A DNA stretch of 64,000 nucleotides, taken from an uncultured Clostridia bacterium (GTDB lineage Bacteria > Bacillota > Clostridia > Oscillospirales > Ruminococcaceae). The DNA lies in NCBI GenBank assembly GCA_947628655.1, contig CANRAS010000007.1, forward strand, positions 1 to 64,000, written 5' to 3'. This document shows, piece by piece, positions 100 through 63,835 of this stretch; within the stretch, counting starts at the first letter, position 1; every line of letters starts with the position of its first letter. A model generated the notes under the pieces. The model searched no databases, had not been told where the DNA came from, and worked only from the letters and a program-made list of their open reading frames with translations. A program made the translations under genes and the position numbers.

Positions 100-205
100 T
101 TTAATTGCCCTACGGCGGGGCGCATTAACTCGCAGACAATCTAATCCGCGCCCGCAAGGACGCACATTATACTGTGTACTCTTAATTATAAACTGTTACC
201 CCCCC
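100..205. repeat. dispersed intergenic element copy (GC hairpins + cgcAGACAATCTaatccgcgc + ..cacattatactgtgtactcttaattataaactg)
   Basis: Same modules as at 63700-63830, 8845-8945 and 61840-61875; see findings. Confidence 0.6.
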
Positions 206-207
206 AC

Positions 208-236
208 TTGACATTATCAACGTAATAAGTTATAAT
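208..236 (+). promoter_or_regulatory. sigma-A type promoter (TTGACA-17-TATAAT) upstream of the C11 peptidase gene
   Basis: Perfect -35 TTGACA and -10 TATAAT with a 17 nt spacer, about 40 nt upstream of the ATG at 275; an RBS AAGAGG precedes the start. Confidence 0.6.
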
Positions 237-274
237 ATAAATATAAACCACAATTAACAATAAGAGGTCAAATT

Positions 275-2362
275 ATGTTTTGGAAAAAATTATTCGCGGC
301 GGTTTCGGCTGTCGCTCTGGGGTTATCAATGTGCGGGTGCAGGAAAACACCGACGTTCTCCGAACCCGATACAGAACCCGTGCTTACTCCGCTTAAAAGC
401 GTGTCGCGAGGGGCGGACGGCTCTGTTGATATAACAAGGCGCGATTTGGGGGATACCCCTATGGGCGAGGACGGAACGTGGACGGTGTTCGTCTATATCA
501 GCGGCTCTACTCTGGAGGAATGGCAAAGTTCCGCCTCCGCCGATTTAAATGAAATGCTGGAGGCGTCAACGGGCGAGAATATGCGGTTTATCGTGCAAAC
601 GGGCGGTTCGAGAAAGTGGAACAACGACTATGTGAACGCCGACTACATCGAACGCTTTGAAATCTCAAACGGGAAACGCACAAGACTAGCGCAGTTACCG
701 CTCGTTTCGCTTGCGGAGGGCGCGACCGTGCGCAATTTCTTAAAATGGGGCGTTGAAAACTACCCTGCCGCGAGAATGGGCGTTATATTCTGGGGTCACG
801 GAATGGGAACTGTCACAGGCGTTTGCAGGGACAGCCTGTTTAAAGGGGATTTCCTTTCGCTTTCGGAACTTAACAGCGCACTTTCCGAAGTGTCCGGGAT
901 AATGACGGACAAGTTCGAGTTTATCGGCTTTGACGCTTGCTATATGGCGACCGCCGAAACCGCCGACGTGGTGTGTTCCTATGCCGATTATATGATAGCG
1001 TCCGAAGATTTAGAGCCTTCCAGCGGTTGGGATTATACGCTTATAGGCAGTCTGTTCGGGGAAAATCCGAACGCCGATTGGAACACGATAGCCAAGACGT
1101 TCTGCGACGGGTTCATAGAACAGAGTTCGGATTCCAAACGCGCGGAACTTGTCACGCTGTCGGTCGTTGACCTGTCAAAATTCGACGAGGTTTCCAAGGC
1201 AATGGACAAAGTTTCGGGGGAATTATACGCCGCGATTAACACGGAGGACAATTATATCAGGCTCGAACAGGCTTTGTGGAATACGGGGCATTTCGGCGAG
1301 GACAACGCGTTTGAGGGCTACGGCAACATAGCCGACATAGGCGACTTTGCGAGAGCGGCGGGCAGTTTCACAAAAAGCGGGGCTGTTTTGCTTGACGCAA
1401 TGGACAAGGCGGTTATATGCAAGCGCGCAGGGAAATATCACGAGAACGCCGCGGGGCTTACCGTATACTATCCGTTCGAGCCTGCGGGACTTTCCGAACA
1501 GGCGACGTTTTCGCGCCTTTGCGTAAGCCCGAATTACCTCGCGTTTCTTGACAGACGTCTGCGCGCAAAGGCTCTCGCGCCCGATACTTCGGACAGGAGA
1601 GCGAGCATAACGGAGCATTGGCTTGACGATGTGAACAACGGCACGAAAACCCTTGAAGAGTACTACAGTTATTCGGAAAACACCGAGAAGAACGGCGACG
1701 CGTCCGAAGTAAGCGGCGCGGTGAAGTTCTCAGTAGAGCCGAATTTCAAGGACGGCGCGTATTCGCTGACGTTAGAGCCGAACTCTTTGGAGGAAATACG
1801 TCAAGTTGGACTGAACGTCTACTATGCTGAAAAGTTCAACAAATTTCAGTTTTTGGGAACGCGCACTTGCGAAAATGCGGATTTGGCGGCGGGAACGTTT
1901 TCGGACGAGTTCGACGGGAAGTGGTATCTCTTAGCCGACCGTCAGCCGATACAGATAAAGCGTCAAAGCGACGGGAATTTCCTGTCGCAAGTTACATTCG
2001 CGGAAACCGAGGCGGCGGTGATATTTTCGGCTGAAAACAATTCCGCGCGGATAATTTCAATGCAAAAGCCCGACGAGTACAACATTCCGTTCCTGCAATC
2101 GGCAAACGCGGGCGACGTTATCGCGCCGATACGCGAAATTTGCACGATAAAGGGCGACAAATTCAGCGCGGAGAACGGCGCGGAGTATACCTTGCAAAGC
2201 GGCGGTAACATCATCTATGACACGTTAAACGACGGGTATTATATTTGTATGCTTGTGATTGAAGACGTTTGGGGCGGGCGTTACGAAACGGAAATGGAGG
2301 AGTTCGCGATAATCGGAGGAGTTCTGGACTTTACACGAACAATTGACGATATTCGCGAGTAA
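275..2362 (+). CDS. secreted lipoprotein, clostripain-like (C11 family) cysteine peptidase with a C-terminal beta-rich extension
   Basis: Signal peptide plus lipobox (..LSMCGC). Has the His-Gly motif (VIFWGHGMG) and the catalytic Cys motif (IGFDACYMAT) spaced as in the C11 His/Cys dyad. Length 695 aa. Confidence 0.6.
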   Translation: MFWKKLFAAVSAVALGLSMCGCRKTPTFSEPDTEPVLTPLKSVSRGADGSVDITRRDLGDTPMGEDGTWTVFVYISGSTLEEWQSSASADLNEMLEASTGENMRFIVQTGGSRKWNNDYVNADYIERFEISNGKRTRLAQLPLVSLAEGATVRNFLKWGVENYPAARMGVIFWGHGMGTVTGVCRDSLFKGDFLSLSELNSALSEVSGIMTDKFEFIGFDACYMATAETADVVCSYADYMIASEDLEPSSGWDYTLIGSLFGENPNADWNTIAKTFCDGFIEQSSDSKRAELVTLSVVDLSKFDEVSKAMDKVSGELYAAINTEDNYIRLEQALWNTGHFGEDNAFEGYGNIADIGDFARAAGSFTKSGAVLLDAMDKAVICKRAGKYHENAAGLTVYYPFEPAGLSEQATFSRLCVSPNYLAFLDRRLRAKALAPDTSDRRASITEHWLDDVNNGTKTLEEYYSYSENTEKNGDASEVSGAVKFSVEPNFKDGAYSLTLEPNSLEEIRQVGLNVYYAEKFNKFQFLGTRTCENADLAAGTFSDEFDGKWYLLADRQPIQIKRQSDGNFLSQVTFAETEAAVIFSAENNSARIISMQKPDEYNIPFLQSANAGDVIAPIREICTIKGDKFSAENGAEYTLQSGGNIIYDTLNDGYYICMLVIEDVWGGRYETEMEEFAIIGGVLDFTRTIDDIRE

Positions 2363-2374
2363 ATTTTAACAGCA

Positions 2375-2404
2375 GAAGTGCGCGGGCGTTCGCCCGCGCA
2401 CTTC
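2375..2404. terminator. bidirectional GC-rich hairpin terminator between the convergent peptidase and fruK genes
   Basis: Hairpin gaagtgcgcgggcg-ttc-gcccgcgcacttc with a 14 bp stem sits exactly between two convergent stop codons. Confidence 0.55.
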
Positions 2405-3375: not shown

Positions 3376-5436
3376 TCAGCAACTGACAATTTTCTGAATA
3401 TCCTCTCTATAATCCCCGACGAGTTCCCCGCACTCAATAACCACATCGCCCATAGCGGACAGGGAAAGCGTGTTTATTTCCTCGTATACAAGTTCGGCGA
3501 ATATGTGGCGTTCATCGCAGAAACTGCGGACGTTGCCCTCTAGGAGCGCTTTCAGCACCTGTATGTGCGTATCCGTCAGACTGTTCGCAAACTCCCGCCA
3601 TTCGCCCGACAGCCCGCTGAACGCGGGGTTTTCCCGCGCCTGTTCCTGAAACACCTGCGGAGCGGGGTCAAGCGGGGAAAGTTCGCGCTTGCAGTCCTCT
3701 ATCATATTGGAAAAATCGTCGTCGCTTATCTTGTCTGCCACGGCGTGGAAGTTCTCCGTTTGCTCGTCGTCGATTATCAGTTTCCGCGCGGTTTCGTCGG
3801 ATTTTGCGCGTATGTCGGCGAGTTTTGATACGTCAATTTCCACTTTCGGCGCGGTGTAAGCAACAGTTTCGTCAACGCCCGCCGTCCGCTTTGGAGCGCG
3901 CTTTATGCCGTTGGCAAGGCAGTATTCATCGACCGCTTTCGGTATGATTTCCAAAAATTCGGGAGCGGACACCGCGTCGGTTAGTTTCGTGCGGTTTTGA
4001 AAATCATTCAGCGCCATTTTCAGATTTGCGGATATTTTTCGGCTATAGCCCGTTTTTTGGCGCAGTCTTGCCTCTACGCTTTTTAAAAGATAGCCGTTAA
4101 AGCCCTTGCACGGCGCAAAGCTGAACAGTTCAAGCGCGGGTTCGCCGCGTTTTTGGCAGTAAATCTCGCCCGCGCTTATCTTTACGGGGTGAAATCCGTC
4201 GGCGGCGTCAAGGTTAATAACAAGGTGCTGAAACGGTTTCCAGGTGTAGTCTTTTTTCAGCTTGCCGAAGATGATTGACGAAAGTTCAATCCCGCGCTGT
4301 TTGAAGTAAACTTCAAGCCCCATAAGCGCGGCTTTGCACGCGCCCTCCAACATCGGGCGCGTCTTTTCACTGTAAAACGCGCTCGACTTTATCGGATAAA
4401 CGGAATTTTCCGCGAGAAAGTTGAACTCGTCCGAAAAACGCTTAAATTCCGTATCGGGGAACTTTTCAAGTTCCGCGCCGCCGTGTTCGGAAATAACCGC
4501 GTTTATGTCGGGAAATTCGTCCTCTATGTCATTGAACGCGTAGAAATCTTTCAGCCAGCGCGGCATATATTCATCGAGGTACGGCGCGAAATTCCGACAG
4601 CCGTCCCAAGTCGCCAGCAGTTTGCGAAACGCGTCCGCAGAGCCGTCCACGCCGATTTTGTGGATAAGTTCACCGCAGTAGAGCATTACATACGGCTTGT
4701 CCGTTTCGCGGAACACTTCGCGCCGAACATCGGTGCGCCATGTGAAATATGTGCGCAGCTGCGAACGCGATAAACTCGCGTAAGTGACCTGTCCTACCCC
4801 GCAGAACGCCCTGCGCGGGAAATCGTCCTCAACATTAGCCATAAACTCGCCCTGTTCGTATTGCGTTATTTCAAACGCGCGTTTATAAACGCCGTTTTCG
4901 CGGACGCACATTTCAAGTTCCCGCATTTTGCGGATTTTATTCACCATATATTCGTCCTGTTCGGACAAATGTTCGGGAAGTGATTCGGGCGGAAAACCCG
5001 TTCTCTGCATTTCGGACGCGCGGATATATTCGCGCGTAGTATATTTGCTGTCAGGAATTTTCTCCGATTTGTAATCTTCCGCAATCACACGAACGCCCCA
5101 TTGTTCGTGACGGCTCGCGTCCTCAACGAACCGCGCCATTTCGTCAAGCTCTGCGGACACCTTTTTCGCGCTGACTTTTTCCGCAGACGCTGTTTCAGAA
5201 GGCTTGCGGTCGGGGATTTTTTCGGCTTTGTACGAAACTTCGGCGGATTTTTTTCTCGCGTCGCGAACGCTTTGTTTAACCGATTTGCGGACGTCGTCGG
5301 GTACAAACTGCGTCATATCGTCAATCACGGTATCGACGATATTATCGACCGCGTTTCCGACCATATCGTTTATGGCTTTTTTTATCTCCTCAATGGATTT
5401 CCCTGTTGTTTTGATAAACTTTTTAAATTCTCCCAT
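3376..5436 (-). CDS. large uncharacterised protein (686 aa), charged/coiled N-terminus; tentatively a TerB-N/TerB-C-like architecture; defence-associated by context
   Basis: Long clean ORF with normal codon usage and no recognisable catalytic motif. The C-terminal segment (..VLKALLEGN..EEINTLSLSAMGDVVIE..) is reminiscent of TerB-C. It lies immediately downstream of, and co-oriented with, the Abi_2 gene. Confidence 0.45.
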   Translation of the reverse strand: MGEFKKFIKTTGKSIEEIKKAINDMVGNAVDNIVDTVIDDMTQFVPDDVRKSVKQSVRDARKKSAEVSYKAEKIPDRKPSETASAEKVSAKKVSAELDEMARFVEDASRHEQWGVRVIAEDYKSEKIPDSKYTTREYIRASEMQRTGFPPESLPEHLSEQDEYMVNKIRKMRELEMCVRENGVYKRAFEITQYEQGEFMANVEDDFPRRAFCGVGQVTYASLSRSQLRTYFTWRTDVRREVFRETDKPYVMLYCGELIHKIGVDGSADAFRKLLATWDGCRNFAPYLDEYMPRWLKDFYAFNDIEDEFPDINAVISEHGGAELEKFPDTEFKRFSDEFNFLAENSVYPIKSSAFYSEKTRPMLEGACKAALMGLEVYFKQRGIELSSIIFGKLKKDYTWKPFQHLVINLDAADGFHPVKISAGEIYCQKRGEPALELFSFAPCKGFNGYLLKSVEARLRQKTGYSRKISANLKMALNDFQNRTKLTDAVSAPEFLEIIPKAVDEYCLANGIKRAPKRTAGVDETVAYTAPKVEIDVSKLADIRAKSDETARKLIIDDEQTENFHAVADKISDDDFSNMIEDCKRELSPLDPAPQVFQEQARENPAFSGLSGEWREFANSLTDTHIQVLKALLEGNVRSFCDERHIFAELVYEEINTLSLSAMGDVVIECGELVGDYREDIQKIVSC

Positions 5437-5527
5437 ATGCGCTCCATTAATTTTCTGTTTTAAGTAAAACAGTAAAGCGATTTCCGTCAGCGCGGTAAAG
5501 AGTGCGCGTTCACGTTACTTCCCCGAT

Positions 5528-5557
5528 TTCTCCTCAACAAACGCGATTTTGGTTTCC
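5528..5557. repeat. 30 bp exact duplicate of the 3' end of the Abi_2 gene (remnant of an Abi C-terminus, ..ETKIAFVEEK)
   Basis: ttctcctcaacaaacgcgattttggtttcc occurs at about 5528-5557 and again at about 5634-5663, inside the Abi_2 coding 3' end. The downstream copy keeps the reading frame for ETKIAFVEEK and then diverges. Confidence 0.7.
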
Positions 5558-5623
5558 AATCTGCGGGAACTTTAACCGATAATCCGCGCGAACGCTCTCC
5601 CGCGCAGAATGTCCGTGTCGTTA

Positions 5624-6502
5624 CTATTCTTTCTTCTCCTCAACAAACGCGATTTTGGTTTCCCAACCGTCGGGGAAACCCAAATCAGACAGCCGCGCTG
5701 CGTCGGAATTTTTCCGCAAAAGCCTTGAAAGCGGTTTTACAACGCGCTCGTTCCAATTCGCTTTGTCAAGATAAAGCTGTTTTAAAACGATTATGTAGCC
5801 GAACGGGTCGTTTTTGAGTTCGGGTTCAAACCCGCGCGGCGTTCTCGGCATAACGGGGAACGTGTTGCCGTAAATGCGGTTATAGTGCGCGCAGAAGTTG
5901 CGAAGTTCATTCAGACAGAAAATCCAGTTGTCCATTTCGGACGGCGAACAGCCGTAAAAATCGTTCGCTAAGACTTTTTTGTCAACATTGTGCATTTCCT
6001 TATAGAAGAACGCAAGCGAGCCGAAACTGAACAGTTCCATAACCACCCATAGCGGGAATTTGCCGTCGTGCTGTCGGTTATAGTGCTTGACGAACTGCCT
6101 GTCGCTGTTCGCCTCGATCATATGGTCAAGCCGCGCGAGAAAGGTTTGGTGATTGTGCGAACGGTCGAACGACGACGGGTTAAGATAACCCATTGCGCCG
6201 TATTTCAGCGCGTGATAGTTTGAAACCGCCGCGCGCAGAGTTATCTCCACTTCCTCCAATGCCGCCAGCAGAATACTCCGCAGTTTGCGGTCCATTTCGT
6301 ATATCCGCAGTATCTTTTCAAACGTCGTTCCTTCTTCGTATTGGTGCTTGCTTATCGAAAAAGGCTCGAAGTAATTCGACAGCCGATAATAGTTGATATG
6401 TTTCAGAGTATCGCGGGCTAACTGCTCGTTCTCAATAATACACCCGCGCTGACGTAATTTTTTAATTTGCTCGTTAGGTGTAGAGGGTATTTTTTCGCTC
6501 AT
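5624..6502 (-). CDS. abortive-infection protein, Abi_2 family (AbiD/AbiF-like, HEPN superfamily)
   Basis: N-terminus ..QIKKLRQRGCIIENEQLARDTLKHINYYRLSNYF matches the Abi_2 family signature. An Rx4H HEPN motif is present in ..ELRNFCAHYNRI... Length 292 aa. Confidence 0.75.
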   Translation of the reverse strand: MSEKIPSTPNEQIKKLRQRGCIIENEQLARDTLKHINYYRLSNYFEPFSISKHQYEEGTTFEKILRIYEMDRKLRSILLAALEEVEITLRAAVSNYHALKYGAMGYLNPSSFDRSHNHQTFLARLDHMIEANSDRQFVKHYNRQHDGKFPLWVVMELFSFGSLAFFYKEMHNVDKKVLANDFYGCSPSEMDNWIFCLNELRNFCAHYNRIYGNTFPVMPRTPRGFEPELKNDPFGYIIVLKQLYLDKANWNERVVKPLSRLLRKNSDAARLSDLGFPDGWETKIAFVEEKKE

Positions 6503-6568
6503 AGAATTTGTTCCGCCTTTTATTAATTGCGTTAATTTAACGCATAATTCTTTCGGTAAAATTTGACG

Positions 6569-6900
6569 TTGACTGTTATCTCGCGTTTTATTCTTGCCGT
6601 TCCGCGGGGGCAGAACTCCTCAAAATGCCCTGTCAAATCAAAAGTTGCCTGTTATAGGTAAGAGGTCGGGCAATCCGCAACGCGAATTACTCAATTGCCC
6701 TATTGTTCCCAAACGGCGAACTTCGCCTGCTGTTCGGTAAGAGTAACACGGGATTATTGACCGCATTGGCTTGGAAATGCTTTTCCTGTCCGTTCGCCCC
6801 GCAGGGGCGAACGGACGAAACTCCTCAAAACGTTCTGTAAAATCAAGAGTTGACTGTTATCTCGTGTTTTATTCCTGCCGTCCCGCGGGGACGGCAGGAA
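6569..6900. repeat. two copies of an ~85 bp hairpin-containing direct repeat in the intergenic region upstream of Abi_2 and downstream of the AI-2E transporter gene
   Basis: Unit ..aactcctcaaaa(t/c)g..ctgt.aaatcaa.agttgactgttatctcg.gttttattc.tgccgt.ccgcgggg.. occurs at about 6569-6655 and again at about 6819-6900. The second copy carries an 11 bp stem hairpin, cctgccgtccc-gcg-gggacggcagg. Confidence 0.7.
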
Positions 6901-6914
6901 TAATTGTTTAAAAT

Positions 6915-8384: not shown

Positions 8385-8509
8385 AACAACACCCTTTCCG
8401 ACCCGCAGACAAACCCGCCCGCGCGTATTGTTTTCCGCTTTTAGATTATTATACCACATATTTCTTCGGTTGTCAATAATTGCACGGGACTAAAAGGCGG
8501 TGCTTTCGC

Positions 8510-8945
8510 AGTTTATAGTTAAGAGTGCACGCATTATCCGCTTCGCGGAAAACGCTGTGCATAGTATTAGGTGTCCGCCTACGGCGGACGGAAAGATTGT
8601 CTTTAAGTCAATACGCGCCTGCACTAGTGCATCTAGCCCGCGTTTTGCGCGGAGCGCAAAACAACGGCGCGTAAGCGCCGTTAATTCGCCGTCAGGCGAA
8701 TTGCGGGCGGTCGGGCAACGGCGCGTACACGGGCGGTGCAGGCGCGTTAATACGCAGGACGTTAAACTAACGCTTGATAAGGGAAAGGGGCGCTTGAATT
8801 GAGCCACGCCCCATACGCGCGATAATGCGAACAACGCTTTGACCCGCAGACAATCTAATAAGCGCCCGCTAGGGCGCAACTCTGTGCATACTATGCACAG
8901 CGTTTTCCGCGAAGCGGATAATGCGTGCACTCTTAACTGTAAACT
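8510..8945. repeat. pair of ~100 bp inverted repeats flanking ~235 bp (MITE-like, or head-to-head copies of the dispersed element)
   Basis: Left arm at about 8510-8610, gtttatagttaagagtgcacgcattatccgcttcgcggaaaacgctgtgcatagtat + hairpin gtccgcc-tac-ggcggac + ggaaagattgtcttt. Right arm at about 8845-8945 is its reverse complement, agacaatctaat + hairpin gcgccc-gcta-gggcgc + ..ctgtgcatactatgcacagcgttttccgcgaagcggataatgcgtgcactcttaactgtaaac. Confidence 0.65.
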
Positions 8946-9472
8946 GTTATTGAGCCACGCCAAACGCGCATTTAAAGCAGTAAGGCTATTTAGGACGGCG
9001 GGCGCGGGGTGGCTTTGGGTCACAGCGTTGCTCGTCGCGGTGGGCGTTTTCTCGCGCCCCTACTTCGCCCCGCAAGGGGCGAAGTCTGGGGCACTCGAAA
9101 ACGCGACGGTTTGCCGTCTGAAATTCGCTGTCGCGAATTTCCCCGCCTGTCGGCGGGCGTTTGGCTACGCCAAACAACGGCAAACCGTGAAGAGCCTGCT
9201 AAACCACTCTGGGTGGACACGGTGAGCGGACTGCCGCCGGCAGTCCGCTCACAATAACGTTGCATTAAACCAACCGTTCCGCGCACTTCGTGCGCTCCAC
9301 TAGGCGCAAGGGGAAAGCCCGCTATCCTTCTAGTAGCTAGAGATTAGAAGCTAGTTGCTAGAGTGTGGATTAGCACTTAAACCTTATCTTCTCTTACTTC
9401 TTACCTCTAACCTCTTACCTCTATAAGTACTAACTACTAACAACTATTCTCTAAATATTCTCTAAAAACTAC

Positions 9473-13476: not shown

Positions 13477-13552
13477 GGAATAGATGTTAGAAGTAAGAAG
13501 TAAGAGGTAAGCGGGCAATCCGCTTTGCGTATTGCCCGCTAACTACTAATAA

Positions 13553-15813: not shown

Positions 15814-15910
15814 ATCTCCGTTTATCAAGTAGATAATAACTTAATAACCATATGAGAAGGATCGCATCATATCAGTTTACAGCGCAAAGTTAAGAGTAAA
15901 TAGTATACAA

Positions 15911-15948
15911 CCGCTCCCTCGCCGTAGGTGGGGGGAGCGGTTTTGTGT
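15911..15948 (+). terminator. rho-independent terminator after the GNAT gene
   Basis: Stem ccgctccc...gggagcgg followed by ttttgtgtt. Confidence 0.5.
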
Positions 15949-16127
15949 TAAAACAGCTTTGACTTCTATATCTTACCTCTTACAGGGTTATCCGCAAAAC
16001 GGATAACTTGCTAACCTCTAATAGCGCTACTCTATTCATACTATTTACTCAACACTATTACCTGTAAACTGATGACGGCGGGGAGGGCGCTTGAAAATTG
16101 TTTTTGCGGAATATTTTTAAAAAGCGG

Positions 16128-16170: not shown

Positions 16171-16330
16171 AATGTATAAACTCTTATGGCGGTTTCCTCG
16201 CCGTGCTAAAATGGGAATTATAAGAGATGCAGCCCTAGCAGGATAAATAATTGGGAGCGATAAAAGACGGGAGCCCTACCGGTATAAACAAATGGGAGCG
16301 ATTAAAGTCGGGATGCCCTACCGTGCAAAG
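16171..16330 (+). ncRNA. type III antitoxin RNA (ToxI-like): ~3.5 imperfect tandem repeats of 40-41 nt
   Basis: Repeats aatgggaattataagagatgcagccctagcaggataaat, aattgggagcgataaaagacgggagccctaccggtataaac and aaatgggagcgattaaagtcgggatgccctaccgtgcaaagc, plus a degenerate leading copy. They lie between a promoter and a terminator immediately upstream of toxN, which is the canonical type III arrangement. Confidence 0.65.
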
Positions 16331-16394: not shown

Positions 16395-16943
16395 ATGAAA
16401 CGCCCATTATTAGATTTATATTATGTAGATATGAAATATGTCCGGGAACTGCATAACGCCGATGACAATGTAATGTCGGTTTCTCCGCAGACAGGAAAAG
16501 CGGCACGCCCGTTTTTGGGATTGGTTATTGTTATGGAAACAAAGAAATATTGTATACCTTTGACTTCACCCAAAAAAGACAAGTTTAAAAGCAAGTCAAG
16601 AGTTGACTTTATCAAAATTCCCGACCCAAAAAGAAAAGATGAACACGGGGCGGCTTTAACTATCGGAATACTAAACTTAAACAATATGATACCCGTGTCG
16701 GAAAACGTCATTCAAAAAATAGATTTATCCAAATCAACAACTTTTAATAGGGATTTGTTGATAAACGAGTTAAAATGGTGCAGAGATAATTTTGATGTTA
16801 TATCAAACAGGGCGAATAAGCTGTACACCAAAATCACGCTGTTCCCCGACAAAGACCGAAATTTAACCCGCCGCTGCTGTAATTTCAAGAAACTTGAACA
16901 AGTTCTTGAAAAATATCTTAATAAAATGGCGATACATACTTAA
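16395..16943 (+). CDS. toxN: type III toxin-antitoxin system endoribonuclease toxin, ToxN/AbiQ family
   Basis: Aligns to Pectobacterium ToxN. FLGLVIVMETKKYCIPLTSPKK matches FIGIVLEIQGHKYLAPLTSPKK, GILNLNNMIPV matches GLINLKFMIPI, and the C-terminal ..CNFKKLEQVLEKY.. matches ..CDFSLLEEKY... 182 aa. Confidence 0.9.
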   Translation: MKRPLLDLYYVDMKYVRELHNADDNVMSVSPQTGKAARPFLGLVIVMETKKYCIPLTSPKKDKFKSKSRVDFIKIPDPKRKDEHGAALTIGILNLNNMIPVSENVIQKIDLSKSTTFNRDLLINELKWCRDNFDVISNRANKLYTKITLFPDKDRNLTRRCCNFKKLEQVLEKYLNKMAIHT

Positions 16944-17160
16944 AGTATCAATAGCCGTTTTCCCCGCCTGTTATCAGTTTACAGGGCTCAGTGCAAAGTA
17001 TTAAACCCTCTCCCCGCCGTGAGCGGGGAGAGGGCGCGCTTTTTAGCGTGTCAACGCAACGACCCGCAGGTCTTACCTCGAAAGTTGCGCCACAAAGGCT
17101 AGTGTGGATAGAGGCATTTGTTAAGCATGTGGCGCAACTTTGACTTCTTACTTCTTACTC

Positions 17161-18589: not shown

Positions 18590-18740
18590 AATAGTAGCTA
18601 GTAGCTAGTTTTGGGCACGGAAAGATTGTCTTTGAGTTAAGAGGTTGATTTTCTAGGGAAAAGCGTTCCCCCGCTCGTACGGCGGGGAGGGCGCGTGTTT
18701 ATTTTACCTGCGACGGTTGAAACTCTTACCTCTTACATCT
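18590..18740. repeat. dispersed intergenic element copy (..tagttttgggcacggaaAGATTGTCTttgagttaagagg.. + hairpin cccccgctcgtacggcgggg + cttacctcttac motifs)
   Basis: Shares the AGATTGTCT core and the ccccgcNNNNNgcgggg hairpin with other copies. Confidence 0.6.
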
Positions 18741-20101
18741 TACTTCTTGCCTCTGTTAGCAAGCCCCGTAACTCCATACTCCACCCGTATATTATCCCCT
18801 GTATACAATCGGTTGAAGTCGTTGATGACACGCTCGGCTACCATATCGCCGTTTACGGAGTTCGCATCCATAAGTATAACTATCATCTGGCGGTTGGAAT
18901 AGCGCGTTGAGATGTCTGAACGGCGCAGGGACGAAACTATCGACTGTTCGAGAAGTTTCATAGCCTGCTCCGCCTCCGCGGGGTCGGGGTTCGCGTTCGG
19001 GTTCTCGCTTATCGTGAACAGCACCGTCTGAACGTCGCGCCCGCTCCGCTCCACAAAACGCTGAATAAAGTTATATACGTTGTTAAATCCCTCAAAATCA
19101 AGCTGATACGCGCCTTTGCCCTTGTCCGCGCTGTTCATAAGTTCGTTTAAATGCTCTAGGTCAACCGCCTTGCGCGCAGGCTCTGCGGAGTTTTTACTGC
19201 TGAAGAAGTGACACGCGTCTTTGCCGTTCTGCTTTACATAGTAAAGAGCCTTGTCCGCCGCGTTTACGAGTTTTGAAAACTCACTGCCGTCCTCAGGCAC
19301 GGTCGCTATGCCGATTGATACGGTCGCGGTAAACTTGCCCTCGCCCGCTTTCGCCTTAATGCCGTCAAGAATTGCGTTCGCCTTGTCGCGAAGTTCGGAT
19401 TTGTCCGTCTTGTCCTTTATGAACATCACAAACTCGTCGCCGCCTATTCTGCACAAAACATCGCCGTCTGCGGAGTTTTCGCGCATAACGTCCGCCGCTG
19501 TTTTCAGCGTCTTGTCGCCCTCTATATGCCCGAACTCGTCGTTTATTCTCTTGAAATTGTCAATGTCAATCATCAACAGCGAACCCAAAAGTCCGAGTTT
19601 CAGCATCGAGTTTACGGCGTTTTCGGTGTAATCCCTGTTCCACAAGCCCGTCAGCAAATCGCGGTGTATCTTGCTCTTTGTATCCGAAACCTCGCGCACT
19701 TTCTGTTCGAGCCTGTCGGCTAATTTTTTGCGCAGTTCGGAAAGTTCAAGCACCCGTGCTATGCGCGACAGCATAACGGCGGGAACGAACGGTCTGCCGA
19801 TAAAATCCACTGCGCCCTCGTCAAAACAGCGCGTTTCCGTGTCGGAATTATTGTCGCCTGTTAAGAAAATCACGGGCGTCTGACGGTGCTTTTTTATCTG
19901 CCGAATACGACGCAAAAGTTCAAACCCGTCTATATCGGGCATATTTACATCAAGCAGTATAACGTCGCAGTCGCCGTTTTCGAGATAAGACAGCGCCTGC
20001 GTTCCCTTTTTCACAGGAATGACCTTATATTTTTCACTCAAAATCCCCCGCAAAGTCGAGAGGTTCACATTATCGTCATCTACCGCCAATATAGTATTCA
20101 T
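18740..20101 (-). CDS. response regulator with a GGDEF diguanylate cyclase domain (REC-GGDEF plus a ~150 aa C-terminal region of unknown function)
   Basis: REC motifs (ILAVDDDNVNL.., DVILLDVNMPDIDGFELL). GGDEF domain with RDLLTGLWNR, FKRINDEFGH and an intact GGDEF site (CRIGGDEFVMF). Confidence 0.85.
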   Translation of the reverse strand: MNTILAVDDDNVNLSTLRGILSEKYKVIPVKKGTQALSYLENGDCDVILLDVNMPDIDGFELLRRIRQIKKHRQTPVIFLTGDNNSDTETRCFDEGAVDFIGRPFVPAVMLSRIARVLELSELRKKLADRLEQKVREVSDTKSKIHRDLLTGLWNRDYTENAVNSMLKLGLLGSLLMIDIDNFKRINDEFGHIEGDKTLKTAADVMRENSADGDVLCRIGGDEFVMFIKDKTDKSELRDKANAILDGIKAKAGEGKFTATVSIGIATVPEDGSEFSKLVNAADKALYYVKQNGKDACHFFSSKNSAEPARKAVDLEHLNELMNSADKGKGAYQLDFEGFNNVYNFIQRFVERSGRDVQTVLFTISENPNANPDPAEAEQAMKLLEQSIVSSLRRSDISTRYSNRQMIVILMDANSVNGDMVAERVINDFNRLYTGDNIRVEYGVTGLANRGKK

Positions 20102-20261
20102 ATATATTCGCTCCTTATAGTCGCTAGAGATTAGTTATTAGTTTTTAGTTTTGGGTCAAAACGCAAACACTCCGCAATAGCACACAACAAGAACGTCAGC
20201 GCAATAACTCAAAGGTCTTACATCTTACTTCTTATAGCTTACCTCTAACTTCTTATTTGTT

Positions 20262-46639: not shown

Positions 46640-46800
46640 CGCAACGTAATAACTAAAAGACAATCTTTCCGCGCACGAAGTGCGCACCTTAGGGTAATCC
46701 GCAAAGCGGATTACTCGCTAACTACTAACTACTATTCTCTAGCTACTGCGCGACCACGCGCTCTTACCTCTTACCTCTAACATCTTACCTCTTACAGCCT
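46640..46800. repeat. dispersed intergenic element copy (aaAGACAATCTttccgcgcac-gaag-tgcgcac, aatccgcaaagcggatt hairpin, ctaactactaa / ctattctctag / cttacctcttacc motifs)
   Basis: Lies between the murE start and the PBP stop. Confidence 0.6.
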
Positions 46801-56675: not shown

Positions 56676-56739
56676 AATGATTTTCCTTTCGATTAAAGTA
56701 CAATTTAATTTAAGAAGTAAGAATTGTATATTCCCGCTG

Positions 56740-56970
56740 CGCGGGAATATACAGAGGTAAGAGGTAAGACATGGTGTCCGCCTACGGCGGACAGAAAGAT
56801 TGTCAGCGGACTAATGCGCCCCTGCACCGCGCAGGCGGTGCGCCTTTTGCCAAGAGCTTCAACGTAAAGACCCGCAGGTCTTACCTCTTACCTCTAAAGT
56901 TGCGCCCCCAAGGCTACTGTGGATAGGGGTATTTCCTGCGATAGGGGGCGCAACTTTAAACCTCTTACTT
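56740..56970. repeat. dispersed intergenic element copy (gtccgcc-tac-ggcggac + agaaAGATTGTCagcgg, plus 30 bp inverted repeat aaagttgcgcc....ggcgcaactt)
   Basis: Similar to 8570-8610 and 17040-17160. Confidence 0.6.
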
Positions 56971-58429: not shown

Positions 58430-58685
58430 TTAACTCCTATAGGTGGATTTAGTAGTAGTTAGAGAATAGTTGTTAGTAGTTAGTTTTGGTGCGCCCTACG
58501 GGCGCGATTAGATTGTCTTTTAGTCCAGAGGTTGACACACTAGGGTAAAAGCCACACCTCCTGCGAGGTGCAGGGGCGTATTAGTCCGCAGACAATCTTT
58601 CTTGTTCCCCCGCAGGGGGAACACCTAAACTAATAACTAACTACTATTCTCTAACTACTTATAAACTCCAACTTTCCTAACGAAT
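58430..58685. repeat. dispersed intergenic element copy with two AGATTGTCT/AGACAATCT cores
   Basis: gcgccc-tac-gggcgc + gATTAGATTGTCTttt at about 58495-58520, and ..tccgcAGACAATCTttc.. at about 58585-58600; tagttagagaatag motifs. Confidence 0.6.
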
Positions 58686-58686
58686 A

Positions 58687-60885: not shown

Positions 60886-61146
60886 ATGCCGACTATATGT
60901 ATGTTCAGAGGAATTAAGGTTTGTATTTACTGGCAGGATCATATGCCACCGCATTTTCACGCGTTTTACGGCGGGGCTGAGGTTCTTGTATCAATTGAAG
61001 ATATTGAAGTAATGGACGGCAGTATGCCGCCAAAACAACTTAAAATGCTCCTTGGTTGGGCGGCGTTTCATCAGGAAGAACTTCGGGAAAATTGGGAACT
61101 CGCACGGCAAAAGCAAGAGTTGTTTTCTATAGAGCCATTGAAGTAA
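60886..61146 (+). CDS. DUF4160 domain protein
   Basis: MPTICMFRGIKVCIYWQDHMPPHFHAFYGG.. matches the DUF4160 signature (..DH.PPHFHa.Y). Confidence 0.75.
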   Translation: MPTICMFRGIKVCIYWQDHMPPHFHAFYGGAEVLVSIEDIEVMDGSMPPKQLKMLLGWAAFHQEELRENWELARQKQELFSIEPLK

Positions 61147-61690: not shown

Positions 61691-61760
61691 CGGCGGGGCA
61701 ATTTGTCTTTTTAACCCGTTCCCCGCCACAGGCGGGGAACCGCCTTTTTACTATTCCGGC
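61691..61760 (+). terminator. two tandem rho-independent terminators
   Basis: gcccccgccgtcggcggggc + aatttgtcttttt, then gttccccgcc-aca-ggcggggaac + cgccttttt. Confidence 0.75.
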
Positions 61761-61764
61761 GTTT

Positions 61765-61838
61765 TCCGCGTAGCGGATAATGAGCGTTTTCCGCGTAGCG
61801 GATAATGAGCGTTTTCCGCGTAGCGGATAATGCGTACA
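61765..61838. repeat. 3x tandem 25 bp repeat (gcgttttccgcgtagcggataatga), continuous with a dispersed-element arm
   Basis: Direct reading; the third copy runs into ..gcgtacactcttaactgtaaactgatgacggcgggg. Confidence 0.8.
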
Positions 61839-61955
61839 CTCTTAACTGTAAACTGATGACGGCGGGGAGAGGGGTTCTGCATATTTAGAAGTTTTACGCC
61901 CAAGCCCAAATTCTAAATTGTCCGACCCTCGCATAAAATCCTACGGGGTGATAAA

Positions 61956-62336
61956 ATGCGAAAGAAAAAACACGCCGACAAACTAAAGCCGTATCTGTTG
62001 GGAACGCTGTTCGGCTACTTTGCAATGCTGATTACGATTTTGCCCGCGTCATTGGTGCTTTCCTTGATGAAATCGGCGGCGGCGGGAGCGGGCGCGGCGG
62101 CGGTCGTCGCACTTACTATCGGCGGGTTCGTCTGCGGAAAAACAGCGGGGCTTATTCGACGCAGGGACGGGCTAAAAACGGGTCTGCTCTGCGGTGCGAT
62201 GTTCGCCGTGCCTATTGTTCTTATAGCGTTTATTACCTCAACCAAAACAAACGGATTTCTTCTTCTGAAGATAGCGTTATGTATGTCGTTCGCCGCTGTC
62301 GGCGGGGTGTCGGGCGTCAATTCGTCTGAGGAGTAG
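61956..62336 (+). CDS. small polytopic membrane protein (126 aa)
   Basis: Four TM helices; no motif. Confidence 0.45.
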   Translation: MRKKKHADKLKPYLLGTLFGYFAMLITILPASLVLSLMKSAAAGAGAAAVVALTIGGFVCGKTAGLIRRRDGLKTGLLCGAMFAVPIVLIAFITSTKTNGFLLLKIALCMSFAAVGGVSGVNSSEE

Positions 62337-62339
62337 TTT

Positions 62340-63368
62340 ATGAAAATTTTGTTGTCCGTTATCGCGGGTTTCTGCGCGGTGTTTCTGATGATAAATCCGA
62401 AAGTTGTTTCCGAAACGATACGCGTTTCTTCGGTAAGCTGCCTTGAAGTTATCGTGCCGAGCCTGTTCGCGTTTACCGTGCTTGCAATTTATCTGCAAAA
62501 AAGCGGACTGTATCGGTATGCTTTGAAACCATTGACTTTCCCTTTATCAAAAATCCTGCGAATGGACGAGGAACTCTGCGCGGTCTTTGTTCTGGCGAAC
62601 ATCGGCGGTTATCCCGTCGGCGCGAAACTGCTCTCGGAACTCGTGCGGCAGGAACGGCTTTCCGCAAATGACGCGGGAAGAATGATGTGCTTTTGCTTTG
62701 GGAGCGGTCCGGGCTTTATGATCGGAATAATCGGAATGAAGATTTTCGGCAGCGCGGCGGCGGGTATTACCCTGTTCGGCGTGAGTTTTGCCGTGTCGCT
62801 GCTTATTGCGGGATTTATGCGGACACGAGGAAATTACGAACTGAAACCCGCCGAAAACCGCTTTGAACTTACCACGGACAGTTTCATTTCATCGGTTGCT
62901 GACGCGGCGCGGGTAATGTTTACCGTATGCGCGATGATAGTCGGGTTTTCGGCAATCTCGGCAATTTTACGGGAAATCGGCGTTTACAGTCTGTTCAGCG
63001 AAATATTCGGCACGGGAGAAATTTTCCCCGCACTTCTCGAAGTTACGAGAGCCGCCGAAATTCCGCTTTCGGAACACTCTCTGCCGTTCTGCGCGGCATT
63101 GCTGGCGTTCGGCGGAGTGTGCGTTCTTATGCAGATAGCCGCGCTTGCTAAAAATATTCCGCTTAAAAGTTTTTTAATCTCACGAGTACCCGCGGCGTTT
63201 CTCTGCGCGGTAATCTCCACACCCCTTGCAAGCCGTTTCGAAACAATTCAGACGCTTTCGGGGAACGCAGTCGTAACGCCGTTCACAAAGAACGCCGCGC
63301 TGTCCTTGTGCGTTATCGCGATGAGCTGTTTGTTGCTTGTGGGGAAGAAAGAGAATTACACGAGGTAA
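62340..63368 (+). CDS. nucleoside-recognition/Gate-domain membrane protein, sporulation YlbJ-like
   Basis: Polytopic protein; the ..ELCAVFVLANIGGYPVGAKLL.. and ..MCFCFGSGPGFMIGIIG.. regions resemble YlbJ/spore-maturation Gate domains. Immediately follows the previous gene (4 nt gap). Confidence 0.45.
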   Translation: MKILLSVIAGFCAVFLMINPKVVSETIRVSSVSCLEVIVPSLFAFTVLAIYLQKSGLYRYALKPLTFPLSKILRMDEELCAVFVLANIGGYPVGAKLLSELVRQERLSANDAGRMMCFCFGSGPGFMIGIIGMKIFGSAAAGITLFGVSFAVSLLIAGFMRTRGNYELKPAENRFELTTDSFISSVADAARVMFTVCAMIVGFSAISAILREIGVYSLFSEIFGTGEIFPALLEVTRAAEIPLSEHSLPFCAALLAFGGVCVLMQIAALAKNIPLKSFLISRVPAAFLCAVISTPLASRFETIQTLSGNAVVTPFTKNAALSLCVIAMSCLLLVGKKENYTR

Positions 63369-63422
63369 GGGGCGAGGGGGCGCAGTAGCTAGAGAATAGA
63401 GGCTAGTAACTAGTAAATGTTT

Positions 63423-63690
63423 AGGGCAGGCGGGCAGGCTGCGGGCAGGCTGCGGGCAGGCTTTGGGGCAGGCAAATTTGGCTTAACACCGCCGTTTGGG
63501 CAGGCTTTTGTTGTTTTTTATATATTCTAAGAAGTTTTTTAATTACACACAAAACAAATGCAAATCTATGCACTAAAAAAGTATAAGGAATTTGGCAAAA
63601 TAGCCCGCCAGCCTGCCCAAACGGCATAACAATGCGGGTTCAAGCCTGCCCGCAAGCCTGCCCGCAGCCTGCCCAAAGCCTGCCCTTGAC
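63423..63690. repeat. ~270 bp imperfect palindrome: 6x GGGCAGGC direct iterons (9-11 bp period), then ~100 bp AT-rich core, then 6x GCCTGCCC iterons
   Basis: Left array gggcaggc x6 at about 63423-63506. Right array gcctgccc x6 at about 63605-63690, which is the reverse complement. The flanks gccgttt/aaacggc are also inverted. The core is ttttgttgttttttatatattctaagaagttttttaattacacacaaaacaaatgcaaatc... Confidence 0.8.
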
Positions 63691-63699
63691 CTGCACTCT

Positions 63700-63835
63700 T
63701 AACCCGCAAAAACACCCCGCCGTCGGCGGGGCGTATTAATTAAAAGACAATCTAATCCGCGCGCGGAGCGCGCACATTATACTGTGCACTGTGCACTGTT
63801 AACTGTAAACTGCGGAAGAATGCTCCGCGCCCTTA
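63700..63835. repeat. dispersed intergenic element copy (hairpin ccccgccgtcggcgggg + aaAGACAATCTaatccgcgcgcggagcgcgcacattatactgtgcactgtgcactgttaactgtaaactg)
   Basis: Read on the reverse strand it is TTTACA-N22-TATAAT, then a 15 bp hairpin, then GGATTAGATTGTCT, then a terminator-like hairpin with a U-run. Confidence 0.6.

Follow-up and report, generated by a model that had tools for sequence, protein, structure and literature searches.

Hairpin-core repeats resembling REP/BIME and MITE elements in the intergenic spacers of an uncultured gut Clostridia species

The lineage of one uncultured gut Clostridia (Oscillospiraceae-like) species has its own specific family of structured repeats, which has more in common with REP/BIME and MITE repeats than with small-RNA genes. 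We think that it is probably a lineage-specific non-coding DNA repeat system like REP/BIME or MITE that colonises intergenic spacers, with the hairpin-core unit as one module. A preliminary description of the 64-kb stretch of DNA analysed here (the window) had claimed elements that are structured, modular and dispersed, and our analysis supports all three properties.

The hairpin-core unit and its copies

The core AGATTGTCT occurs in eight exact copies in the 64-kb window against 0.18 expected, a number reached in 0 of 100 shuffles. These lie at 134 (-), 8594 (+), 8848 (-), 18623 (+), 46658 (-), 58510 (+), 58590 (-) and 63745 (-), and a copy with one mismatch, reading AGATTGTCA, lies at 56797 (+), confirming the nine sites of the dispersed family as first described. 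A degenerate 26-nt pattern covering core and tail gave six matches in the window where 0.00 were expected, and an nhmmer profile of the tail recovered the same nine sites at E <= 1.2e-5, its sole further match there being marginal (E = 0.68). All nine core copies are intergenic, as had been claimed (intergenic DNA makes up ~12% of the window), and gene-internal matches to GATTGTC had no adjoining GC hairpin of the family kind. A count of orientations (6 plus, 6 minus) gave no replication-strand bias, a point against the reading that we prefer, though inverted pairs would mask one.

The unit is ~45-50 nt long and consists of a (G/T)GT head, a GC-rich stem of variable sequence but preserved pairing, a 3-6 nt A/T-rich linker, and a conserved ~25-nt tail (AGATTGTCT-N3-RRTYMA-N2-CG). 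Seven of the nine copies have a perfect GC stem of 6-9 bp with a 3-4 nt loop, then a 3-5 nt linker, then the core; the stem at 134 includes one G.T pair, and at 18623 the 3' arm alone remains. The statement that the core always follows a hairpin holds for eight of nine copies and was slightly overstated for this half-hairpin. The elements had also been called much more structured than ordinary REPs, which is true in part; the conserved tail is indeed an extra feature, but the hairpin with its GT head is REP-like.

The stems of 14 copies comprise eleven different sequences; of their 84 pairs, 83 are Watson-Crick and the other is G.T. Stems were also perfect in five further copies from other strains. 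In alignment A5, 98.6% of cells were paired compared with 62.6% in shuffles (observed value reached in 0 of 500), slid controls gave 28-57% pairing, and six of seven pairs changed on both sides. Compensatory changes are therefore present, and the hairpin is maintained by structure, not sequence.

The units, modules and arrays of the window are the following.

121..166, minus strand: unit c1, with TGT head, hairpin GCGTCC-TTGC-GGGCGC (one G.T), linker GGATT, core AGATTGTCT and tail GCGAGTTAATGCG
167..195, minus strand: A module adjoining c1, CAGTTTATAATTAAGAGTACACAGTATAAT, a "promoter-like" string with a 15-nt spacer
8509..8946, unstranded: inverted-end composite, A-hairpin-core-H module (~210 nt)-core'-hairpin'-A', its flanking A-module arms 59 nt long and 98% complementary
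8570..8615, plus strand: unit c2, with hairpin GTCCGCC-TAC-GGCGGAC, linker GGAA, core and tail TTAAGTCAATACG
8633..8843, plus strand: H module, an internal segment rich in hairpins, with 85-90% identity to the L002 and L024 copies
8835..8880, minus strand: unit c3, with hairpin GCGCCC-TAGC-GGGCGC, linker TTATT, core and tail GCGGGTCAAAGCG
15873..16071, unstranded: A-module inverted pair (15873+ and 16071-), with no core in between
18613..18644, plus strand: unit c4, truncated, with 3' arm GGGCAC alone, linker GGAA, core and delta-type tail (..AGAGGTTGAT..CTAGGG)
46645..46688, minus strand: unit c5, with hairpin GCGCAC-TTC-GTGCGC, linker GGAA and core, within the PBP-murE spacer in sense orientation, ~25 nt upstream of the murE ribosome-binding site
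46711..46795, minus strand: F array (46711-46741) and E array (CTCTTAC x5, 46761-46795), after the PBP stop codon and upstream of c5
56773..56818, plus strand: unit c6, with hairpin TGTCCGCC-TAC-GGCGGACA, core variant AGATTGTCA and an alpha-type tail carrying hairpin GCACCGC-GCAG-GCGGTGC
58453..58483, plus strand: F array, stop codons TAG at a 7-nt period, just outside c7
58488..58625, unstranded: inverted pair of c7 (58488-58531, plus) and c8 (58577-58625, minus), 71 nt core to core
58630-58653: inverted partner of the preceding F array, just outside c8
63715..63731, minus strand: beta-type terminator-like hairpin, CCCCGCCGACGGCGGGG then TGTTTTTG, downstream of c9
63732..63776, minus strand: unit c9, with hairpin GCGCGC-TCC-GCGCGC, linker GGATT, core and tail TTTAATTAATACG
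63777..63812, minus strand: A module adjoining c9, TTTACA, 22-nt spacer, TATAAT

The accompanying hairpins and low-complexity tracts noted earlier (CAGTTTACAG..., CCCCGCC-N-GGCGGGG, AATCCGC-N3-GCGGATT and CTTACCT / CTAACTACTAA) were all found, repeated in the window. The coreless A-module pair at 15873..16071 shows that this module does not depend on the hairpin-core unit.

Promoter-like strings and the small-RNA reading

Two copies had been thought to begin with a promoter and to give a ~70 nt transcript ending at a terminator. TTTAYA...TATAAT strings are indeed present at copies 1 and 9, but their spacers are 15 and 22 nt and a consensus scan allowing 16-18 nt was blank there, while the same scan called real window promoters (TTGACA-17-TATAAT). 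Hexamer spacing differs by copy (15, 19, 22 or >45 nt), and the upstream promoter-like module accompanies only four of nine window copies. Only 2 nt separate the end of TATAAT from the stem, so transcription would begin inside the 5' arm. Moreover, in strain L030 (~98% identical) the TATAAT part of the A module beside c9 is replaced by two D units and other sequence, and the core of the orthologous site is also mutated. Copies are sense, antisense or paired relative to genes, with no pattern. The off-consensus spacers, the -10 at the stem, the box missing from L030 and the mixed orientation all argue against the proposed transcript.

A multi-copy small RNA or cis-acting RNA family, in which a hairpin, a single-stranded GGAWWAGAUUGUCU and a terminator would be produced from an own promoter or within mRNAs and recognised through base pairing or by an RNA-binding protein, is accordingly hard to reconcile with the spacing that the 16-18 nt scan leaves uncalled, with an RNA that would miss part of the 5' arm, with the loss of the -10 box and the core mutation in L030 at what is otherwise the best copy, with the four-of-nine occurrence of the module and with the patternless orientation. 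Relatives lack the family, and Rfam contained no match to it even at E = 1. The same reading would account for the strong hairpin covariation, for a G.T pair tolerable on the core strand only, for the TTTAYA...-10-like module upstream of c9, c1 and L002_85, and for the good CCCCGCC hairpin and T run downstream in c9 and L002_85. Fold z-scores point both ways, at -2.65 for c9 and -3.69 for L002_85 but -0.6 and -0.7 for single copies, which fold no better than shuffles. Overall, we regard an RNA family as very improbable.

Inverted ends, composites and turnover between strains

At least two larger composites are bounded on the outside by the conserved tail in inverted orientation, one around an interior of ~100 nt and the other around the ~210-nt H module, and in them the tail behaves like a terminal inverted repeat. 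All four H-module copies have the core at their right border, and three have it at the left border too; in the fourth, an F array intervenes on the left between H module and core. In L024, a third composite encloses an H module between two ends that each consist of unit plus terminator. Two inverted pairs share 89% identity in the segment between the hairpins, whereas the hairpins themselves are just 44-57% identical, and those within one inverted pair differ from each other.

These ends raise the alternative of an ordinary MITE moved by a cut-and-paste (DDE) transposase, with the conserved tail (~13-25 nt) as the true terminal inverted repeat and the GC hairpin lying outside the element as a preferred target, insertion taking place beside REP-like hairpins. 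In its favour, homology ends at linker plus core in two comparisons of paralogous composites (one of them W8848 vs L002_3967), with the hairpin diverged as flank, the same inverted ends enclose different interiors (the ~100-nt one and the H module), and coreless free GC hairpins are common in spacers. However, one subfamily runs A module, hairpin, core, beta terminator, and there the hairpin, with compensated changes and homologous segments on both sides, is internal to the unit; the hairpin is also included in a block replaced between strains, no target-site duplication was found, and single ends make up many copies. We therefore consider a DDE-type MITE unlikely.

Turnover takes place at the DNA level, by gain, loss and exchange of units. 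Between 97-98% identical strains, paralogous counterparts take the place of entire units, together with their hairpin and adjoining low-complexity tract, and of entire spacers. Within otherwise 100% identical DNA, one block of ~90 nt, from tail through core and hairpin to outer tract, is replaced, the variant being identical in three independent assemblies. In a comparison of strains 98% identical, the CheC-FlgG spacer is swapped entire for a paralog of the c6 composite. A 148-nt block (three D units, an A module and a CCCCGCC stretch) gives way to an unrelated 45 nt in four assemblies, D units go from three to two between strains, and assembly breaks coincide with these repeats. All differences in the strain comparisons were block replacements, with no target-site duplication, clean insertion or excision; recombination alone could produce them, which counts against the reading preferred here.

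Another explanation is that these DNA or mRNA structures serve the host and are kept by selection rather than selfish spread, for instance as places where a nucleoid, gyrase-like or regulatory protein binds, or as hairpins that punctuate operons and protect mRNA 3' ends. E. coli REP/BIME elements, which bind gyrase and IHF and stabilise mRNA, offer a precedent, and strictly intergenic placement, always-paired stems (83/84 Watson-Crick, one G.T) and frequent occurrence in operon spacers of essential clusters (PBP-murE, polyamine operon, flagellar operon) are consistent with such a role. Yet the same spacer holds different composites in 98% identical strains, close relatives do without any of these elements, and neither distance nor orientation to promoters or gene ends is fixed. 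Some tails carry a weak IHF-like TCAA-N4-TTG, but Firmicutes, to our knowledge, lack IHF, which leaves this string without an obvious reader. We find host service quite improbable as the reason for the family.

The MITE option of the preliminary description, taken as MITE/REP-like, fits the inverted pairs, the inverted-end composites, the restriction to one lineage and the strain turnover. In the repeat system that we favour, the hairpin and the adjacent conserved stretch may form the end that is recognised by an enzyme whose gene lies elsewhere in the genome, most likely a transposase reading single-stranded DNA hairpins (HUH/Y1 type, as in REP-RAYT and IS200/IS605). Recombination or gene conversion among dispersed copies would have shuffled them after spread, and any consequences for transcripts, for example additional hairpins between operon genes, would be by-products and would not explain why there is such a family. 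No transposase gene was found in the window or in ~16 kb of adjoining same-strain sequence; Group 1 RAYT genes are present in Clostridia (PMC5581495).

Lineage restriction and known repeat systems

The core and the A, D, E and F modules were not found in syntenic stretches from relatives with 90% and 80% protein identity, which hold generic CCCCGCC hairpins only, and the tail profile had 0 matches across 117 kb from relatives. A pattern scan of 185,579 species genomes returned one match, by chance, and scans of JGI metagenomes and IMG/VR returned none.

Published REPs have a GTAG, GTGG or GGTG head followed by a GC hairpin (PMC2817692). In common with REP/BIME, the family has extragenic GC-rich hairpins (15-21 nt) headed by a short conserved stretch that contains GT, compensated stem variation, both orientations, mosaics with other short motifs, and strain differences. 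Unlike the REP/BIME of enterobacteria and pseudomonads, it resides in a Clostridia species, has no sequence similarity to them, has a (G/T)GT(G) rather than GTAG head and a long conserved tail (~25 nt) 3' of the hairpin, and shows far more diverse stems inside a single family. That conserved 3' flank, far longer than the REP 5' GTAG head, speaks against our preferred reading. Perfect stems with fast-changing sequence could also reflect selection on RNA structure.

As in REPIN-RAYT systems (Pseudomonas, E. coli), inverted hairpin doublets ~70 nt apart recur at separate loci, here 58488-58625 and, just outside the window, L015 12680-12822 with the same c7/c8 architecture. In contrast to REPINs, the doublet hairpins differ and no single long hairpin runs through them, only the 9-13 nt cores pairing, and many copies are single units; this mismatch between paired hairpins, foreign to the classical REPIN, also counts against the reading that we prefer.

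Like BOX, RUP and SPRITE of Streptococcus pneumoniae and bcr1 of the Bacillus cereus group, these are modular, structured, non-coding intergenic repeats of Firmicutes with no linked transposase gene, but no sequence relationship was detected and Rfam has no matching family. We know of no hairpin plus conserved tail architecture, or period-7 stop-codon tracts, in those elements. The NIME/dRS3 and Correia elements of Neisseria are strain-variable short-module spacers bounded by small inverted repeats, with promoter- or terminator-like strings. The spacers described here likewise draw on a vocabulary of short modules with small inverted repeats at their borders, contain promoter- and terminator-like strings and vary between strains; they differ in sequence and phylum, and have neither a TA duplication nor the defined 26-nt Correia end. 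One dRS3-like ATTCCCGC-N3-GCGGGAAT is present at 56730-56748.

Placement and anatomy of the hairpin units

The nine core sites of the preliminary description were recovered as eight exact copies of AGATTGTCT and one variant (AGATTGTCA), and all nine are intergenic, even though intergenic DNA accounts for only ~7.9 kb of the 64 kb (12%).

Hairpin-core units in the window (core position, strand, core)
c1: 134, minus strand, exact core
c2: 8594, plus strand, exact core
c3: 8848, minus strand, exact core
c4: 18623, plus strand, exact core
c5: 46658, minus strand, exact core
c6: 56797, plus strand, variant core
c7: 58510, plus strand, exact core
c8: 58590, minus strand, exact core
c9: 63745, minus strand, exact core

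Shuffled sequences contain the exact core 0.18 times, and none of 100 shuffles reached eight. A 26-nt degenerate pattern that joins the core to its downstream tail gave 6 matches against 0.00 expected, and an nhmmer profile of the tail found the nine sites at E <= 1.2e-5, with one further marginal match at E = 0.68. A script seeking a perfect stem-loop just 5′ of the core detected a GC-rich stem of 6-9 bp with a loop of 3-4 nt, lying 3-5 nt before the core, in seven of the nine copies. The stem of c1 has one G.T pair and c4 retains the 3′ arm only, so on the core counts and the stem-loop scan the earlier observation is correct except for the claim that the core always follows a hairpin. The same script found no GC hairpin of the unit's kind adjoining the GATTGTC matches within coding sequence. 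Over the ~80 kb read, the density is ~1 unit per 5-7 kb.

The surrounding genes are ordinary chromosomal ones. A cell-division cluster encodes SpoVE, MurA, FtsZ, a penicillin-binding protein of the PASTA-domain type and a division protein with a POTRA domain; elsewhere there are a polyamine operon, the genes for PNPase and ToxN, two-component systems and the beginning of a flagellar region. The 64 kb contain no transposase gene, and no RAYT (Y1) gene was found there or in ~16 kb more of this genome. Homologs of the window's proteins are named in their sources as MAG proteins of Oscillospiraceae, Ruminococcaceae or Lachnospiraceae, and identical or near-identical DNA was found only in ENA and Logan metagenome assemblies.

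The anatomy of the unit was read from ~19 distinct copies in the window, in L002 (1-5720) and L015 (beyond 11661, just past the window), and in the strain contigs L024 and L030. The order is a (G/T)GT head, the stem-loop, a linker (GGAA, GGATT, GATT, AGAA, AATTC and others), AGATTGTCT, three variable bases (GCG/TTW), RRTYMA, two bases and CG. A GT stands at or just before the stem in 12 of 14 copies, mostly as GGTG or TGTG. Four types follow downstream: alpha (..CGCCCCTGCACC-hairpin-CTTTT), beta (a CCCCGCC hairpin that in some copies has a T run), gamma (GTCAAdrCGTTG, then an H module) and delta (AGAGGTTGAC..CTAGGG). On the upstream side the neighbor may be a D hairpin, an A module or a tract of type E or F. 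As the neighbors vary on both sides, the unit behaves as an independent module.

The further modules noted at first were borne out as a recurring vocabulary of hairpins and low-complexity tracts. The spacers are mosaics in which at least eight module types recur in changing order and orientation, and at a strict threshold at least 25% of the intergenic sequence has a counterpart in a different spacer of the window.

Modules accompanying the units
A module: CAGTTTACAG...GTGCAyAGTAT, 10 intergenic copies
CCCCGCC-N-GGCGGGG hairpins: recurring spacer module
D hairpin unit: 25 nt, ..TTATCCGC-N3-GCGGAAAA..
H module: ~210 nt, hairpin-rich
Long hairpin module: AAAGTTGCGCC...GGCGCAACTTT, window 17081-17141 and 56896-56957, again in L024 and L030
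Tract E: low complexity, GTAAGAG repeats
Tract F: low complexity, TAGAGAATAGTWGYTAG...

Several smaller repeats were seen among these modules. The loop region of the long hairpin module holds TGTGGATAG, one base off a DnaA box. A 25-nt hairpin unit, GCGTTTTCCGCGTAGCGGATAATGA, stands three times in perfect tandem at 61759-61832 and twice in the strain contig L036, and it is also inserted into two A modules (8509 and 8946) and at the c9 ortholog of L030. At 63430-63685, two inverted GGGCAGGC arrays with a period of 10-11 flank an AT-rich center of ~170 nt, and the central ~230 nt are missing in strain L030. A small inverted repeat at 56730-56748, ATTCCCGC-N3-GCGGGAAT, has a similar counterpart at L015 12636-12655 and presumably resembles the dRS3 repeat of the Neisseria mosaics.

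Hairpin covariation and the small-RNA reading

The conserved hairpin proposed at the outset shows compensatory change. Among 14 copies there are 11 stem sequences, with stems of 5-9 bp and loops of 3-4 nt that mostly read T-N-C, and 83 of the 84 stem pairs are Watson-Crick, the remaining one being G.T. Pair counts were taken only from alignment A5, which holds ten copies with 3-nt loops in a structurally consistent register; the MAFFT whole-unit alignments A1, A2 and A11 were left out because stems fell in inconsistent registers. In A5, whose sequences were trimmed around hairpins already identified so that the test is biased towards structure, 98.6% of cells are paired against 62.6% with partners shuffled, and 0 of 500 shuffles scored as high. 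Both sides vary in six of the seven pairs, the covariation score is 0.867 against 0.231, and pairing falls to 28-57% when the partner columns are slid. These ten copies are most of the family, and five more from other strains have perfect stems, new ones such as GCGCAA/TTGCGC and GCGCCT/AGGCGC included. Taken together, the A5 statistics and the further stems indicate that pairing is constrained, or is re-established in some way, and that the sequence can vary freely, which fits RNA or single-stranded DNA alike.

An RNA role would make use of such a hairpin and is possible, at a lower probability; against it, the family has no match in 117 kb of relatives and nothing in Rfam. Of the readings considered, that of a small-RNA gene family has the least support. 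The promoter-like strings on which it was based are present at c1 and c9, with spacers of 15 and 22 nt, but a consensus scan with 16-18 nt spacers did not call them, the same scan calling the window's true gene promoters as perfect TTGACA-17-TATAAT. The ~70-nt transcript from promoter to terminator was not supported either. In both copies TATAAT ends 2 nt 5′ of the first stem base, so that a start 5-9 nt downstream would fall within the 5′ arm and the RNA would lack the hairpin on which this reading depends. The distance from TTTAYA to the -10-like hexamer of the A module is 15, 19, 22 or >45 nt, depending on the copy, the A module itself stands at only four of the nine window copies, and the -10 box of c9 is replaced in strain L030.

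Orientation relative to neighboring genes is sense, antisense or paired, without a pattern, and one copy lies in the murE 5′ leader, within an operon. A good CCCCGCC hairpin with a T run follows c9 and the copies L002_85 and L024_4667 and is weak or absent elsewhere. Compared with shuffles, folding gave z = -2.65 and -3.69 for copies with a terminator and z from -3.1 to -4.5 for inverted pairs, and single units folded no better than shuffles (z = -0.6 and -0.7). The search for an Rfam family had no match at the gathering score and none to the units at E <= 1; the sole match of the window at E <= 1, a plant microRNA (MIR810) on the long GGGCAGGC hairpin, is far below threshold and was taken as spurious.

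Inverted ends, strain differences and distribution

Core and tail form inverted ends on composites with a ~100-nt interior and on composites of the H module. At 8509-8946, arms of 59 nt (8509-8567 and 8888-8946), 98% complementary, enclose the order A - hairpin - core - H - core′ - hairpin′ - A′. The inverted unit pair at 58488-58625 has 71 nt between its cores, an architecture repeated at L015 12680-12822, and at L024 4645-4950 a unit with a beta terminator flanks another H module on each side. When the two inverted pairs were compared, the segment from one hairpin to the other, which takes in both cores, was 89% identical, the hairpins 44% and 57%, and the outer flanks 38-40%. By these identities, the tail behaves like a terminal inverted repeat common to elements with different interiors, and the hairpin turns over much faster than the tail. 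The hairpin is not simply flank, because in the subfamily ordered A module-hairpin-core-beta terminator it is enclosed by two homologous segments, and the substitutions that distinguish its copies are compensated.

Inverted ends around a short non-coding element, such as the 98% complementary arms and the core-and-tail ends, are the likeness of a cut-and-paste MITE, for which the hairpin would be the target; the difference is that no target-site duplication was found at any composite or any strain difference inspected, and we regard this explanation as possible and less probable. The doublets are likewise REPIN-like in being inverted, but without two like hairpins: no like-stemmed REP doublet was found, and stems differ within the pairs 8594/8848, 58510/58590 and L015 12706/12785.

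For comparison between strains, which gave the most informative result, strain B (contigs L024-L026, from three separate assemblies) was found through the GGDEF-EAL protein of L002, of which it carries a variant 98% identical, and eight more contigs were found through the 126-residue DUF3792 protein, with DNA mostly ~98% identical and L032 at ~92% over part of its length. In the CarB-GGDEF spacer, strains A and B are 100% identical for 310 nt, then a ~90-nt block is replaced. It runs from the final 25 nt of the tail, which differ by three substitutions, through core, linker and hairpin to the outer tract, and identity resumes at the ribosome-binding site. The block has the hairpin TGTCCGCC and an E tract in strain A, and TGCGCCC and an F tract in strain B, where it is 88% identical to the window unit at 58453-58525. 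The CheC-FlgG spacer holds an inverted pair in the window strain and a paralog of the c6 composite in L030, with the hairpin GCGCCT/AGGCGC. Upstream of DUF3792, a 148-nt block (three D units, an A module and a CCCCGCC stretch) gives way to an unrelated 45 nt in four assemblies, and L036 has two D units against three in the window. At the c9 ortholog of L030, two D units and other sequence stand in place of AGTATAATGT, the core is mutated (AGATTGTAT), and linker and loop differ too. Strain B retains the inverted pair with five substitutions and its stems unchanged. Contigs of several assemblies begin or end exactly at the repeats.

These strains are 97-98% identical, and what distinguishes them is blocks that are replaced, or that one strain has and another lacks; none is a clean insertion at a vacant site. 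The differences are marks of exchanged and reshuffled repeated DNA, not of conserved genes or operator sites. A structural role serving the host is possible and less probable.

Other differences were seen alongside. L002 links the GGDEF-EAL gene to murE within an F tract (L002 5708-5749, window 46747), and in L024 and L025 of strain B the same gene leads into a repeat-rich spacer, L024 running onward to an MscS-like channel gene and dapB; the join in L002 stems either from chimeric assembly or from rearrangement at the repeat. In L032 (1330-1450, from Logan), 12 nt without repeats lie between the AdoMet decarboxylase stop and the next start codon, that of a decarboxylase sharing just 69% identity with the window's, which suggests recombinational replacement of the allele with a tight junction. 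The DUF4160 gene (window 60886-61146) is absent from the strain B contigs L031 and L033, whose flanking genes are 98-99% identical.

Syntenic DNA of a sister species (L005-L011; decarboxylase 90% identical) has no core and no A, D, E or F, and few intergenic repeats of any sort; a closer relative (L027 and L028; GGDEF-EAL protein 80% identical) also has no core, A, D, E or F. Generic CCCCGCC hairpins alone are present in the syntenic DNA of these relatives, and the tail profile gave 0 matches at E <= 1 in 117 kb of it. The pattern used to scan public collections, which recovers four of the nine window copies, had one match among 185,579 species-representative genomes, in a Chthoniobacteraceae, which we attribute to chance because it has no hairpin and no related context. 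The same pattern had no match in JGI metagenomes or in IMG/VR, blastn found none for the composite 8509-8946 among 72,556 plasmids or for 58440-58670 among 50,697 phage records, and searching the literature with sequence strings gave nothing but unrelated primers and siRNAs. The closest decarboxylase homolog, P0001 (91%), lies in a different context and is uninformative on the family. Within the sensitivity of these searches, the family occurs in a single species-level lineage. A Clostridia lineage is thus able to fill its spacers with such modules over a short evolutionary distance, as relatives at 80-90% protein identity are without them. The modules drive strain differences and break metagenome assemblies; they account for contig breaks, and for a join that is probably chimeric, in the assemblies of this species, and are potential strain markers.

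Proposed mobilization, known systems and stop-codon tracts

The units are DNA repeats of modular build, restricted to one lineage and variable among strains; the hairpin is constrained in structure, and the conserved tail forms inverted ends. We propose that an enzyme encoded elsewhere would read hairpin and tail and spread the units, and that the dispersed copies would then be shuffled by recombination among themselves. The ends of REP-RAYT and IS200/IS605 systems are constrained in shape and free in sequence, beside a conserved stretch. Published REPs have a GTAG, GTGG or GGTG head followed by a GC hairpin (PMC2817692), and group 1 RAYT genes are present in Clostridia (PMC5581495). Because of the shape-constrained layout of the ends, these published heads and the clostridial RAYT genes, we favor as the enzyme a transposase of the HUH/Y1 kind, which would recognize hairpins in single-stranded DNA. 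Against it stand the lack of a target duplication or clean insertion, the unlike hairpins within a pair, and a conserved flank that is 3′ and long. If the mobilizing enzyme is found, the units would be a natural set of sequence-variable, shape-constant hairpins for studying how structure is read.

As multicopy, short, GC-rich extragenic palindromes with stems of 5-9 bp and loops of 3-4 nt, the units are like REPs; their head, mostly GGTG or TGTG, is similar to the published ones, not identical. REP/BIME arrays and the Neisseria intergenic mosaics are closest in architecture, BIMEs and NIMEs being likewise extragenic mosaics of palindromic units and other short motifs, and we claim an analog by architecture alone, not membership. 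Most descriptions of dense REP/BIME-type mosaics come from Proteobacteria, and the host here is an uncultured, Oscillospiraceae-like gut species. We file this family as lineage-specific mosaic extragenic repeats in a Clostridia species.

Other identities were considered and dropped. A PyrR binding loop (AGUCCAGAGGUUGA) appears in a single delta tail and is not conserved, and GGATTGT is the only part in common with a BglG/SacY-type RAT antiterminator. TCAA-N4-TTG in some tails recalls an IHF site, but Firmicutes, the host phylum, are not known to have IHF. GCCGTCTGAA, the Neisseria DNA uptake sequence, occurs twice (9113 and, within a gene, 31215) by chance. The unit stem is followed by GGAAAGA and no T run, unlike an intrinsic terminator, and an 11-codon frame in a paired element is lost in the second copy. 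CRISPR, integron attC, tRNA and tmRNA identities were also rejected.

The more unusual loose end is the period-7 tracts that accompany the units. They carry a stop codon every 7 nt and close all three frames, E as a GTAAGAG repeat and F as TAGAGAATAGTWGYTAGTWRYTAG.

Period-7 stop tracts
2405-2428
13494-13510
18726-18742
20218-20241
46711-46795
58453-58483
58630-58653
63390-63413
Others, and the metagenome loci L019-L023

Arrays with at least three stops are intergenic in 23 of 25 cases, and 13 of the 25 are sense-oriented and within ~120 nt of a gene's stop codon, some overlapping or supplying that stop. Stop-codon usage of the genes is ordinary. The F pattern was not found in IMG/VR and is present in five JGI metagenome contigs (29-55% GC), where it lies at the ends of genes or immediately 5′ of a ribosome-binding site. 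The tracts, which directly follow stop codons in sense orientation, might be a functional three-frame stop element of gene ends and, as the F type recurs across that GC range, one common to several Firmicutes; that this holds and that the units are also the ends of an undescribed clostridial mobile-repeat system, RAYT/IS200-like, with single-stranded-DNA hairpins selected for shape alone, is a combination we think improbable.

Other loci of the window carry repeats of their own. The ToxN toxin gene (16395-16943) is preceded on its 5′ side by a 41-nt tandem repeat of 2.2 copies (16231-16322), so 16231-16943 matches the layout expected of a type III ToxIN locus with a putative repeat-encoded antitoxin RNA. 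Two tandem repeats lie in frame within genes: one of 30 nt x 6.2 (37489-37675) occupies the 3′ end of the gene for the POTRA-domain division protein, and one of 18 nt x 4.7 (38583-38666) stands just upstream, within the extended frame of this gene. At 3376-6502, a TerB_N/TerB_C-domain protein adjoins an Abi_2 (abortive infection) protein, possibly as a small defense island, and the spacer beside these genes (6503-6914) has its own 42-nt direct repeat, 205 nt apart.
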